Source: Octopus sinensis (Eukaryota). From it: a stretch of DNA of 64,000 nucleotides. Every line of letters starts with the position of its first letter. Positions within the stretch are counted from its first letter, which is position 1. The DNA lies in NCBI RefSeq assembly GCF_006345805.1, contig NC_043001.1, positions 129,022,001-129,086,000 on the forward strand. Direction: 5' to 3'. Both the position numbers and the translations under genes were made by a program. The notes beneath the pieces are model-generated. The model saw nothing but the letters and a program-made list of their open reading frames with translations. It had not been told where the DNA came from and ran no database searches. Of the stretch, positions 1,355 to 53,193 are shown piece after piece.

Positions 1355-1402
1355 CTTGCCTGAGGAACCTATGCACCTACAGTTGAAACTCATAGTAGCA
1401 AG
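1355..1402 (+). ncRNA. Minimal type-I hammerhead ribozyme motif
   Basis: CTTGC-CTGAGGA-AC(ctatgcacctaca)GT-T-GAA-ACT(cat)AGT-A-GCAAG. Stem I is CTTGC/GCAAG, the CUGANGA and GAAA core is intact, and the cleavage triplet is GUA. Stem II is weak. Confidence 0.65.
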
Positions 1403-1618
1403 AGACTGACTGGATCAAAATTAAATATCATTTTTGTCTACAATGATATTGAGCACTCTTTTTTTCTGGCAGTCAACACTAAACAGATATATGTGTGCAT
1501 GTGCGTGCATGTGTATGTATATGTATGTATACTTTATGTATATAAATGTTGATATTCAATGCTTGTTACAGCTGGAACAAAACAATGATGATGTTGACAT
1601 TATGGCTGATTAACCTGT

Positions 1619-2250
1619 TTCTTTACTACCCACAAGGCGCTAAACACAGAGGGGACAAACAAGGACAGACAAACGGATTAAGTCGATTACATCGACGCCA
1701 GTGCATAACTGGTACTTAATTTATCAACCCCGAAAGGATGAAAGGCAAAGTCGACCTTGGCGGAATTTGAACTCAGAACGTAATGGCAGACGAAATACCT
1801 ATTTCTTTACTACCCACAAGGGGCTAAGCACAGAGAGGACAAACAAGGACAGACAAAGGGATTAAGTCGATTAGATCGACCCCAATGCTTGGTTGGTTGG
1901 TTGGCATCCTTTCTGTCTTGGGAGACAATGGAGTTGCGCATGAAGTAGTCTAGTCTGGCTTTTATATTTCATGTCCTGATACATTTCCTGCTGTGGCTGT
2001 GTAGTCCTATCCTGGACAAACACTCCCTCTGGCAGGTACCGCAACTGTAACGAAGACTGTTCCTGGCTGGTTGTAGTGCCATAGTCTCTTGTTTACGTCT
2101 CTTCCTTTCTTTCCATTTCTCCTCTCTCTCTCTGTCACTCCTTTGTATTCCCTCTTAAAGTCGACCTTGGCGGAATTTGAACTCAGAACGTAACGGCAGA
2201 CGAAATACGGCTATGTATTTTGCCCGGCGTGCTAATGATTCTGCCAGCTA
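1619..2250 (-). mobile_element. Dimeric tRNA-derived SINE (family B) with a 20-bp TSD, interrupted by an RTE fragment
   Basis: B-box-like GAGTTCAAATTCC and central CCTTTCATCCTTTCGGGGTYGATAAATTAAGTACCAG. The direct repeat attatggctgattaacctgt occurs at 1599 and 2251. Confidence 0.85.
1889..2156 (-). mobile_element. RTE-clade LINE 3' fragment
   Basis: Minus frame ...WKERKRRKQ...YSCGTCQRECLSRIGLHSHSRKCIRT* matches the RTE C-terminal C..C.R.C.SRIGL.SH motif. It ends in a (CCAA)n tail. Confidence 0.8.
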
Positions 2251-2654
2251 ATTATGGCTGATTAACCTGTGCTTTCAAAGACTTCCGGAATAAAAATATT
2301 CCTTATTCAGAAAACAAACAATGACTGATAACAGAAAGAGCATTCATCTGTAAATTCCTGCCTGAAATAACTCCTCATTTAACCCATGATAAGATGGGAA
2401 ACAAATGAACATCCAATGAACAAACGAACCAATGAAAATATGTGTGTGCATGTGTTTGAGTGTGTGCCCAACAAGGATCTTACAGTTTCCATCTAGCACT
2501 CCCATTCATGCTATCGTAGAAAATACCTGTCACAGTGCCATGCAAGGTAGGTGGAACAAACAAATGTGGTTGTGTGTGAAATCTATTCAGATTCCATCGG
2601 TGCTAACTTTACCTGTCGTCTTTCTGAGGTTTATCAAGTAAGTAACAGTCATAT

Positions 2655-3065
2655 ACTCTTTACTCTTTTACTTGTTTCAGTCATTTGACTGCGGCCATGC
2701 TGGAGCACCGCCTTTAGTCGAGCAAATCGAACCCCGGGACTTATTCTTTGTAAGCCCAGTACTTATTCTATCAGTCTCTTTTTGCCGAACTGCTAAGTGA
2801 TGGGGATGTAAACGCACCACCATCGGTTGTCAAGCAATGCTAGGGGGACAAACACAGACACACAAACACACATACATATATATATATGTATACATATATA
2901 CGATAGGCTTCTTTCAGTTTCCGTCTACCAAAACCACTCACAAGGCATTGGTTGGCCCAGGGCTATAGCAGAAGACACTTGCCCAAGATGTCACGCAGTG
3001 GGACTGAACCCAGAACCATGTGGTTGGTTAGCAAGCTACTTACCACACAGCCACTCCTGCGCCTA
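2655..3065 (-). mobile_element. tRNA-derived SINE family A, full length
   Basis: Head ggcgcaggagtggctgtgtggtaag...gggttcagtcccac (A/B boxes), internal (TA/TG)n and a (GTAAAAGA)n tail. More than 10 copies occur in the window. Confidence 0.9.
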
Positions 3066-3257
3066 TAATAGGGTCTAGTAAATTTCTTACATTACCCTCC
3101 TGTGTTTCATTTTTTAACCCTGTGTCGGCTCTTGATTAAGCATATCTATGATAAAAAAACATTCCAACCATGTCCTATCCAGTTTTTTTCTTATGTACAT
3201 GTAACTTAGGACCCTTGCCTGTTTTCCAAGTAAGGAATATTTTTTTTAACTCCAGAA

Positions 3258-49615: not shown

Positions 49616-49658
49616 ATGTGTGTCTGAAAAGCTGTAGCCAGTAAAAGCATGTACACAT
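49616..49658 (+). ncRNA. Decayed hammerhead motif just 3' of the Penelope ORF
   Basis: ATGTGTGT-CTGAAAA-GCTG(tagc)CAGT-AAAA-GCATG-TA-CACAT. Stems I and II are recognisable, with G8A and G12A core changes. Confidence 0.5.
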
Positions 49659-52600
49659 CATGAATGAATCTTTCCAAAAAATTTGTGTTATTATTTTCTT
49701 TTGATATAATAATAAGTTTTAATTTAAGAAAATCTTGCTTCAAATATTGTGACTGTATTAAGAATTCTTTCTAAATAGAATTTCTTAAAAACACACACAT
49801 ACACACATATATACACACTCTCACACATACACATACATACATATATATATATACACATATACACACAGATGCATATATATGTGCATATATTCATATGTAT
49901 ATGCATATATATATGTATATATATATATACATACATACAAATATATATATATGTGTGCATGTATGTATGTATGTATGTATGTATTAGAAAAAACACATGA
50001 ACATAAACTTTCTTTATTTTTAATTTTTTAATTAAAAATACTTGCCAAATTATAAATCAGATAGAGATTAAATAGAGGGAAAAAAATTACTAGTAGATAG
50101 TGTCAAGACTGATTTAATTTCTCCCTCTCACTCTATGTCCCTCCCTCCATCTCAGAGTCACACCTCTGTCTTCATCCCCTAATTGTGCCCTGCTACAATA
50201 GTCACTCAGTCTTGACTGAGCACTGTACTAAGATCAGATGAACTGATGTGAATCTCCGTATTGCAGTACTAGTGTTGGATGTGGGTGGGTGAGGGAGGTG
50301 GTGAAAAAACATTTAGGGAAATGATGAACTTTATTGAATTGCATAGTATGAAAAAGATAGCATACATGTGTGGCTGTAGGTACATATATATGCACACATA
50401 TATACATATATAAATGCGTGCACACTCATATGTGCATATACATACATACATGCATACGTACATACATACATACATACATACATATATATATATATACACA
50501 CATACATGTACATATACATGTAGGCATATACACACATCTGTGTATATAAGTATACACACACACATATATATATGTATATATGTAAATATATATACACATA
50601 CACATATATGTACATATATTATGTATGTGCACATACATACATACACACAAACACACACACGTATATACATACATACATACATACATACATACATACATAC
50701 ATACATATATATATATATATATATATTATATATATATATATATGCGTCTGTTGTTTTTTTCCTCATTCTTCTCATTGAATGTGGCAGAATTATATCCAAA
50801 CGGAAAGATTAGCAAGGTCATGAAGTAATTGGTTGACAAAGGAATGGTACAAAGAATATGAGACTGCAAGGGTGATTGATGATTATAAACACACACATCA
50901 TCTCACACACATATACACAAATACACACAGATTGAAACTCATGCATACAAACACACACTCACATGCAAATACACACACACACACATATCCATACATTTAT
51001 ACATGCACTTATACATACAAAACGAAAATAACAACAATAACAGTAAACACCACCACTTCGACCAAAAACCATAATCATCATCATCCTCATCATCATCATC
51101 ATCATCATCATCATCGTCGTCGTCGTCATGAAATCTTAAACAACCCAGTTCCAACTGATCCAATTCCTTTTCCTTGAACAAATGGGGTTTCTAAACTTAC
51201 CTCATTCCTCATTTCAATTAACAAGGATGATTTAAAAGATAATGTCTTTTAAGAAAATAATCTTTACTAGTTCTAAATAATTAACAAAAATATACAAATA
51301 TATAAATATCAGTGAAGAAAAAAAACAAAAAGAAAACCTGAAAATATAACTGTAAAAAAAATAAAATAAAAAACATTTTGAGAAAAAGAACCAAATACCA
51401 ACCCCCTCAACATCAACTTGTCCCCCACCCTACATACCTCCAATGAAATAACTAAACACTACACCCTTTCTCTTCGAATTACCTTGCTCCACTCCTTTCG
51501 CATACTATCCAACATCTTGATAAAAAAAAGGAATAAATAACTGAAACAGCTTCAGTTGATATTTATAAGAAGGAAGTAAATAAGGTCTAAAGTAAGTTAA
51601 AATAAATATGAGAAAACGGTAAATAATTACATATTGAGGTAAAAGATAAATACAGAGCAATGATGATGACAGCGACAATGATGATGATGATGATGATGAT
51701 GATAATAATTATAGTGTTGTTCATAGCAATAACAAGAATAGCTAACCGAACAAACAATCTTTAGAGTATTTGTTTTCTTTCAGTTTCTTGATTATCTAAC
51801 TTGATTGATCAAAGACAACGATATAATTGTTAATTTTCATTGTTTGAACCTGACACTGCAGCACTGAAATTGCATTGTTACTTCTGAACATTTAGTTTGT
51901 TGGACTTGTTGTTGTTGAACTTGTTGTTAAATCATTATTTTCATTATTAACTTTCTGAGTAATATCTAATATTAGTTTTTTTCTTGAATGTATCTTTGAG
52001 ATCTTGACACATTTTTTTTTGCAATGTGTGTGTATGTATACATATATGCGTGTATATATATATATATATTATTATATATATATATATATATATATATATA
52101 TATATATACACCTGCATATTTTAGATGCAAGTGCAATTGTGTAGTAAGAAGTTTGCTTCCCAACCACATGGTTCAGGGTTCAATCCCACTGCTTGGTACC
52201 ATGGGCAAATGTCTTCTACAATAGCCTCAGGCCAACCGCCAAAGCCTTCTGAATGGATTTTAGTAGCCAAAACCTGGAAGAAGCCCATCACACACACACA
52301 CACACACACACACCACACACACACACACACCACACACACACACACATATATATATATATATATATTATATATATATTATATATATATATATATATAATAT
52401 ATATATATGTATATGTATATGTATATATGTATATGTATATATATATATATATATATATATATATATATATATATATATAATATATATATATATGTATATA
52501 TATATATTTATAAATAAGGATAATATCGATATTTAAATATTGATCTTATCAAGTGGTCAGCATGGGAATAAATACCATACAAAGGTAATAATTATTTAAA

Positions 52601-52745
52601 ACTATAAATAAGGGTATCTGAGAGATATGACCATACCGAAGTAGCAGTCAAGACCCCGACTCCAAAAACCACCTTAGATGTTCATATCATGCCATGAGAT
52701 AAGACAGAGAGACAAAATAAACTAGTAAGAAAGATTTTACTGGAT

Positions 52746-52806
52746 AATTCAAGATCCTGGATTTCTGATTTTGCTTCAAATAAGCTCTGTCTTCGTCAGT
52801 TGAATT
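52746..52806 (-). ncRNA. Type-I hammerhead ribozyme motif with a canonical core
   Basis: Minus strand: AATTCAA-CTGACGA-(agacagagcttatttgaagcaaaatca)-GAA-ATCC(A)GGAT-C-TTGAATT. Perfect 7-bp stem I and an AUC triplet. Stem II is imperfect. Confidence 0.7.
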
Positions 52807-53023
52807 TGTCAGATGGGTACATAAATACAAATATATATGCAGAACATACGTTATACTTACATATACGAACGTCCTTACATACATATATATGCACGTATGT
52901 ACAAAACCAGTCCAAATTGCCCGCCATATGTTGATATATATATATATATATATATATATATATGTATGTATGTATGTATGTATGTATGTATATTATATAT
53001 ATATATATATATATATATATATA

Positions 53024-53193
53024 TATCTATAAAATAATATGTTACAATTACTCAATAGTCAAGATAAAACTCTGAGTTTCAGATGCCGAAGTGGAAATCT
53101 GAAGAGATGGTGTTGTGGATTTCCACTTCGGCATCTGAAACTCAGAGTTTTATCTTGACTATTGAGTTATTGTAACATATTATTTTATAGATA
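53024..53193. repeat. Fold-back (~76-bp arms, 18-nt loop) in (TA)n with a hammerhead core at the turn
   Basis: 53024-53099 pairs with 53118-53193. The plus strand 53099-53149 reads CTGAAGA-GATG...CATC-T-GAA-ACTC(A)GAGT-T. Confidence 0.9.

Follow-up and report, generated by a model that had tools for sequence, protein, structure and literature searches.

Hammerhead-type motifs in a 64-kb window of the Octopus sinensis genome read as damaged 3' ends of Penelope-like elements and two likely non-coding derivatives

Within a stretch of 64,000 nucleotides from Octopus sinensis (assembly GCF_006345805.1, contig NC_043001.1, positions 129,022,001 to 129,086,000, forward strand; the window hereafter), eight short sites resemble minimal type-I hammerhead ribozymes, which raises the question of what kind of element each of them belongs to. 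The first-pass annotation had placed seven folds and one half motif, at 26560, in mutually unrelated, short, (TA)n-associated elements mobilised by enzymes of Penelope-like elements (PLEs). The eight sites are read here, with a probability of about 0.88, as 3' ends of PLEs of the Hydra, Poseidon and Neptune types, most of them damaged, shortened from the 5' side and in many cases inverted, together with two likely non-coding derivatives, all with predicted hammerheads. Hammerhead-type sequence was present at all eight sites, as annotated, and every site belongs to a dispersed, multi-copy family (F1 at 1355, F2 at 19513, F8 at 26560, F3 at 41794, F4 at 47661, F5 at 49616, F6 at 52746 and F7 at 53099), with family majorities restoring complete hammerhead folds where the window copies have decayed. 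In its main part this finding is already known, as PLE tails with minimal hammerheads are in print, among them that of a Hydra element from octopus whose stem III is built alike. Less ordinary are a tRNA-like segment with a sharp copy start in F3, a switch of the 3-8 pair in F8 and the dominance of C4 in F4.

Candidate sites were compared with the hammerhead core C3-U4-G5-A6-N7-G8-A9, G12-A13-A14 and U16.1-H17, or a known variant of it. A strict type-I descriptor (exact core, stem I of at least 4 bp, stem II of at least 3 bp; 30 local dinucleotide shuffles as control) returned no match within the 64-kb window. At intermediate stringency the window stood above its control: one core mismatch gave a single match, at 19513, against a shuffle mean of 0.07 (maximum 1), and an exact core with stem II not required gave two, at 1355 and 52746, against 0.07 in shuffles. 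At the loosest setting, combining one mismatch with no requirement for stem II, three matches were obtained against 1.9 in shuffles, which is chance level. An Rfam scan of the window, which is microsatellite-rich, showed no hammerhead family among the 150 listed of 274 matches at E<=10; the listed matches were nearly all microRNA look-alikes in simple repeats and hairpins, and none attained the gathering score. The loosest descriptor and the Rfam list are what could be expected if the motifs were chance matches in an AT-rich repetitive region. However, that explanation, which is given next to no credence, is refuted at the family level, where the majorities restore the folds, sit behind PLE open reading frames (ORFs) and fit the published architecture. 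Support for the hammerheads lies at that level, the individual window folds being weak, and the window copies at 47661 and 49616 lack core positions that are present in their family majorities.

Family searches were conducted on the 2.72-Gb genome containing the window. Exact-pattern matches numbered 12 for F1, 3,697 for F2, 6,558 for F3, 6,025 for F4, 137 for F6 (position 7 left free), 988 for F7 and 265 for F8, whereas reversed-pattern controls gave none for any of these seven families; the figures are exact matches including both inverted arms, not element copies. Cores were then scored by eye in the first 100 listed matches per family. The core was canonical in 96 for F3, in 92 for F6 (position 7 being split among three bases) and in 66 for F2, in which another 32 of the 100 had C4. 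An initial view of C4 as the F2 consensus, taken from best-hit loci, was rejected as query bias on the strength of this position-ordered list. F7 comprised two subfamilies (approximately 40 with U4 and 55 with C4), and C4 was found in 96 of the 100 listed from the 6,025 F4 matches; the natural U4C change lowers activity in vitro according to the accessible part of PMC3088659. The 3-8 pair of F8 was U-A in 51, C-G in 41, U-G in eight and C-A in none, or C-G in 12, U-A in nine and U-G in two of the 23 distinct rows. Cores are conserved or covary among subfamilies, 93% of cells were paired in the F8 and F7 stems, and the stem III palindrome of F6 differs from that of F1, F2 and F7 yet remains palindromic.

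These features resemble those of the minimal hammerheads of metazoan PLEs (Cervera & de la Pena 2014, PMC4209133; here and below, likenesses to and differences from published systems refer to the accessible parts of the papers), which form many families per genome, mostly as single truncated copies, with opposite-strand pairs, an extra base after A9, a U3-A8 variant and a palindromic loop III. The octopus families differ in that both forms of the 3-8 pair occur within one 353-nt family and that C4 is dominant in a family of 6,025 matches. The annotated expectation of minimal type-I hammerheads of PLEs, in several families and with inverted terminal fragments, was borne out. Dimeric PLE hammerheads are reportedly the subject of Lunse et al. 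2017, who may already cover these variants.

Linkage to a PLE reading frame was found for four families, F2, F3, F5 and F7. Judged from translated motifs, F2 and F7 are 3' ends of Hydra-clade PLEs. The F2 copy (19415..19640, minus strand) is flanked by (TA)n runs and has one long arm and one short, inverted arm; its hammerhead (19513-19562, C4 subfamily) is the best preserved in the window. A same-strand Hydra-type endonuclease was located approximately 1 kb upstream in 8 of 30 position-ordered F2 loci, with the reverse transcriptase (RT) farther upstream in L517 and L518. F7 (53020..53258, plus strand) comes from another Hydra-clade PLE, of which it is the palindromic 3' end, with a hammerhead remnant from 53099, truncation having removed the 5' strand of stem I, and in L349, L357, L374 and L376 the endonuclease end of a Hydra-motif ORF lies approximately 750 nt upstream. 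The two predicted proteins are 32% identical over 198 aa and share CxxC and CxH around conserved E and N, the absence of CCHH, and (TA)n targets; DKT is present in the F2 RT and was seen only there, and the CxCX5C linker of F7 has its second Cys replaced in F2. One RT resembles, by eye, that of Hydra-1_Obim.

The clade definition was taken from section 11 of Craig et al. 2021 (PMC8557442). Under this definition F2 and F7 are Hydra rather than Nematis, and Naiad, to which the (TA)n targets had pointed, was ruled out since the endonuclease is C-terminal and hammerheads are present. F2 and F7 resemble the Hydra-clade PLEs of that paper, including Hydra-1_Obim of Octopus bimaculoides, in protein motifs, in (TA)n targets and in a hammerhead near the 3' end with stem III palindromic around one base, whereas F1 and F6 resemble them by RNA architecture only. 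Most rows of the published Hydra hammerhead table, which covers an octopus family, carry one additional base on each side of stem II, as is also the case here. The present hammerheads differ in sequence from the one listed for Hydra-1_Obim, the 3' untranslated regions (UTRs) here span approximately 0.75-1 kb, and C4 subfamilies occur here but in no row of the accessible S2 table. F1 (1262..1483, approximate ends, plus strand) is an old fragment with a decayed inverted arm; its hammerhead at 1355-1402 has a broken stem II and an intact core, the majority fold has a 5-bp stem II, and family identity is approximately 75-86%. By its RNA features F1 is probably another Hydra-type PLE 3' end. The annotated view of unrelated flanks stands insofar as several families are present, but not for 1355, 19513 and 53099, as F1, F2 and F7 have a common stem III sequence and tail motif. 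In the F2 loci L072 and L074 the long and short arms show the same loop-II difference, most other loci having matching arms, hinting that some palindromes were copied whole or from mixed templates.

F5 supplies a protein-coding remnant of a PLE within the window. The end of a broken linker and GIY-YIG domain, with frameshifts and stops (49000..49560, approximate start, plus strand), is followed by a 3' UTR (49561..49790, plus strand) with a dead hammerhead at 49616-49658, in which G12 and the 3-8 pair are missing. A Pfam search gave no match on the window fragment. The majority reading of 30 loci, which are similar to a natural Neptune-type stretch, runs through a Cys linker (CX2-5CxxC), a GIY-YIG domain and a stop to the hammerhead, and from these predicted motifs F5 is classed as a Neptune-type relic, the linker motif also being found in Nematis. 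The annotated GIY-YIG relic at 49 kb is therefore real, but as a dead copy of one old family it cannot be the mobiliser for which it was taken. The family core is the U3-A8 variant, reported earlier in Schistosoma PLEs.

F4 (47564..47795, minus strand) derives from the 3' end of an element that is young, high in copy number and terminated by (TA)n; in the window copy the hammerhead, at 47661-47695, lacks G5. A CA-rich upstream stretch of up to approximately 1.2-1.4 kb is common to a few copies. From its resemblance, by eye, to the 3' end of a Neptune-type family, F4 is probably Neptune-like. The Neptune-type ORF of L512, located 3 kb upstream, was rejected as its partner, as the L512 family has a different 3' end: 29 other copies of that ORF share only approximately 200 nt downstream, and the printed ones end in a different hammerhead. 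Apparently intact PLE frames do exist in the genome. A young Neptune-type family (L271, L272), represented by a tandem pair approximately 4 kb apart with (TA)n 3' ends, has an intact 811-aa ORF and a U3-A8 hammerhead (39 of 39 matched copies; U3-G8 was also noted) with a 2-bp stem II, and is a candidate active element. It was rejected as the source of the window elements, having a different 3' end and no window match. In another Neptune-type family (L521, L523, L524, L528), all four printed copies have a hammerhead-like motif without the usually invariant A6, which would be a decayed core that nevertheless continued to spread or else a novel variant.

The remaining protein-linked family, F3, differs in clade and in content. 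The window copy (41746..42016, minus strand) comprises a tRNA-like segment, (AAT)n, a hammerhead at 41794-41839 with one base altered in the loop-III palindrome, and a tail. The family lies downstream of a frame with RT and GIY-YIG domains and no Cys linker, translating to a CCHH-type endonuclease of the Penelope/Poseidon clade, and on this protein evidence F3 is a Poseidon-type PLE tail; Pfam gave no informative match for the protein. The annotated association with (TA)n does not extend to 41794, which has no TA flank, though it holds at others such as F2, F4, F6 and F7. Among 30 ORF-anchored F3 loci, the tRNA-like segment was present in 24, usually 30-39 nt after the ORF end, and the hammerhead in 20, the two occurring together in 18. 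The tRNA-like segment was linked to the hammerhead in 26 of 30 head-anchored loci and, within approximately 310 nt, in 13 of 20 position-ordered loci.

The tRNA-like segment of the window copy (41930..42004, minus strand) contains A-box-like and B-box-like motifs, a predicted RNA polymerase III (Pol III) promoter. The boxes were judged by comparison with their general consensus. The window copy starts at the first base of this segment, with a short inverted arm beyond, and the same 5' end was found in 16 of 20 position-ordered copies and in 32 of 44 arms. Pattern matches fell from 1,982 just inside the boundary to 410 just outside, a 4.8-fold step over approximately 23 nt, for which the comparison is a 3.3-fold step over approximately 150 nt from the F3 hammerhead, the patterns differing in degeneracy. 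Tool support for a tRNA origin is weak: of two copies tested with Rfam, L011 gave a weak tRNA match (14.5 bits, E 3.9) and L332 none, and ARAGORN predicted no tRNA in the window and 18 loci. In L320 and L561 the tRNA-like head and (AAT)n are followed by the same non-F3 sequence, which may be a different repeat attached at (AAT)n or a sister short interspersed element (SINE).

Whether copies begin at the tRNA-like base because of a predicted Pol III start or a fold-back hot spot is close to an even call. A possible explanation, put at slightly under even odds, is that the boundary is a place where RT tends to stop or to fold back on a short near-palindrome, so that F3 is only a truncated Poseidon. 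The boundary is itself such a near-palindrome, an inverted arm was flagged by script in 10 of 20 sampled copies and by eye in three more, and F2 likewise inverts at a native palindrome. However, approximately four of the 16 copies starting at the boundary have, by eye, no inverted arm, and the boundary coincides with the start expected of a Pol III promoter of this type. Under a further reading, held tentatively and with somewhat less than an even chance of being right, the Poseidon-type 3' UTR holds a predicted tRNA-derived Pol III promoter that would give rise to a SINE-like RNA copied by the same PLE, and F8 and F6 would be retrozymes bearing PLE-type scars. Such an RNA would consist of the tRNA-like head, the hammerhead and the PLE tail, and could be launched by every copy; if true, this would mean a SINE that arose within a Penelope-like element and is driven by it, in place of a long interspersed element (LINE).

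A close published likeness to F3 is found in the SINE-like elements of Schistosoma (reviewed in PMC6765202), in which a Pol III-type promoter also precedes a hammerhead in a mobile unit. The octopus family differs from these in that its tRNA-like segment is a fixed part of a protein-coding Poseidon-type 3' UTR and that its short copies, instead of forming tandem arrays, are scattered and inverted. It also differs from the Poseidon element PAc of Anolis (Frangieh et al. 2024, PMC11167929), the accessible description of which makes no mention of a tRNA-like segment. A literature search, with Repbase and Dfam outside the comparison, found no description of a tRNA segment within a PLE 3' UTR or of a PLE-dependent SINE.

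F8 and F6 stand apart as non-coding units that close on themselves. Statements on their junctions and (TA)n flanks are based on printed loci read by eye. The F8 copy (26353..26790, plus strand) is a 5'-truncated, inverted copy of a tandem unit, with arms at 26350-26535 and 26560-26745 that are 97% complementary; the inversion cuts the motif, leaving half a hammerhead at 26560 and a fuller remnant on the minus strand at approximately 26507-26553. The end of the 353-nt unit joins its own start, L220 being a direct dimer at 353 nt, and this junction was seen in approximately 9 of 20 printed loci and in two sequencing runs. None of 30 F8 upstream regions matched three PLE proteins. The F6 copy (52499..52917, minus strand) is part of an approximately 500-nt unit with a Hydra-type hammerhead at 52746-52806, its stem II weakened, and the unit end runs into its start in L127 and L447. 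No PLE ORF link was found in the F1, F6 and F8 loci examined. Both F8 and F6 fit the retrozyme definition at the DNA level and would likely be represented by circular or tandem RNAs. The F8 unit also occurs in runs labelled as four organisms and is probably shared among related species.

In comparison with non-LTR retrozymes (LTR, long terminal repeat; Cervera & de la Pena 2020, PMC7229834; Li et al. 2026, 10.64898/2026.07.22.740005), F8 and F6 are alike in being non-coding units of at least approximately 350 nt with one type-I hammerhead and head-to-tail junctions, for which a PLE origin and mobilisation have been proposed. They depart from animal retrozymes in that most copies are scattered monomers or incomplete dimers showing PLE-type inversions and (TA)n ends; F6, at approximately 500 nt, exceeds the reported 170-400 nt range, and both are known here from DNA. 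If all the short elements were independent non-autonomous retrozymes mobilised in trans, as the first-pass annotation implied, the self-closure of F8 and F6 would follow naturally, as would the finding that the best-scoring loci of most families are short and have no linked PLE ORF. This general form is improbable, however, as ORFs lie upstream of F2 and F7 in position-ordered samples and ORF-anchored loci lead into F3; it is refuted for F2, F3, F5 and F7, and could still hold for F1 and F4. The idea of non-autonomous elements is thus retained for F8 and F6, which look retrozyme-like, and withdrawn at least for 19513, 41794, 49616 and 53099, which are 5'-truncated 3' ends of protein-coding PLEs from three clades.

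The anatomy of the insertions points to PLE-type integration. Opposite-strand partners were present in 26 of 30 loci for F2, 23 of 30 for F7, 15 of 30 for F3, 9 of 30 for F8, 7 of 29 for F1, 3 of 30 for F6 and 2 of 30 for F4, counts in which some loci overlap and for which the queries used with F2 and F7 spanned the centre of the inversion. In most cases 45-70 nt are missing from the end of one arm. PLE insertions that are truncated, inverted and tailed have been described before, and the mechanism adopted here is that reported for the Anolis Poseidon PAc (PMC11167929), with nicking of AT-rich DNA and internal RT starts that make an optional tail; its hammerhead cleaved only with protein and was dispensable for insertion in vitro. 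Under the proposed mechanism, the family hammerheads would cleave only as dimers or with protein help, the PLE protein would nick AT-rich or (TA)n DNA, and reverse transcription would begin inside the RNA 3' region and often end early or fold back, leaving short palindromic tails that hold an uncleaved hammerhead. Selection on the hammerhead would act only in master copies, with decay in the scattered ones. F8 and F6 would likely be circular or tandem RNAs borrowing a PLE enzyme, and F3 would likely gain copies via Pol III transcripts starting at the tRNA-like segment. A single (TA)n tract (window 52480-53260) holds F6 and F7 back to back, and shared TA runs also collect different PLE families in L067, L127, L139 and L374.

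The same anatomy bears on the suggestion that scattered hammerheads cleave host pre-mRNA, regulating or damaging a host gene. The canonical core is kept in thousands of family copies, and F8 sequence is found in runs presumed to be RNA, although none of those listed is recorded as RNA; both observations would suit such a role. However, most window copies are damaged or truncated and four of them (1355, 19513, 26560 and 53099) lie in inverted repeats that would pair in a read-through transcript, which makes cleavage of host pre-mRNA unlikely. No host exon was recognised among the window ORFs of at least 100 aa. Further, in the accessible published data, single minimal PLE motifs showed no cleavage (PMC4209133) and a Poseidon hammerhead required protein (PMC11167929). 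Taken together, a host effect is considered very improbable.

Several results weigh against the assignment of the sites to PLE 3' ends with predicted hammerheads. The clades were assigned by motif rather than by phylogenetic tree. No PLE ORF was found upstream of F1 in 12 loci, no ORF is firmly linked to F4, and a BLAST comparison of the L512-type family with F4 gave only a 14-nt exact match. One F6 locus has a same-strand Neptune-type match approximately 1 kb upstream and L139 has one behind a TA run, both of which are read as neighbouring insertions. The covariation of the 3-8 pair in F8 is one subfamily split counted many times, a single evolutionary switch, and the 10.1-11.1 pair is unpaired in 14 of the 23 distinct rows. 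F7 showed no two-sided stem change in 20 distinct rows, a result not above shuffles, with the 5' side fixed by the search pattern. Minimum-energy folding of natural F2, F6 and F7 copies did not form the hammerhead.

The value of these families is as test material, comprising an intact young Neptune-type ORF and thousands of copies with natural core variants (C4, and U3-A8 versus C3-G8). Together with retrozyme-like units bearing PLE-type insertion scars, such variants make both the role of the PLE hammerhead and the enzyme behind animal retrozymes testable. Should the retrozyme reading of F8 and F6 be true, they would be direct evidence, at the genomic level, that PLEs drive the movement of retrozymes in a mollusc, and F3, if driven by Pol III, would be an example of a PLE-dependent SINE. 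In the O. vulgaris repeat paper (PMC13282606), the word 'hammerhead' is absent from the accessible main text.

Pfam was largely uninformative, and a protein search gave eight relatives without names. Other features of the window were also noted. Three segments, at 44033-44575 (minus), 25261-25728 (plus) and 954-1295 (minus), for which Pfam gave no match, look like LINE reverse-transcriptase ends. Of three further inverted repeats, none of which matched PLE probes, the one at 54375-54684 appears to be a palindrome rich in AT, that at 31754-32163 probably a remnant of a DNA transposon and that at 2939-3382 a pair of SINE-like copies in opposite orientation. Tandem arrays at 14908-15465 (184-nt unit, 3 copies) and 25894-26166 (63-nt unit, 4.3 copies) are built from common repeats.

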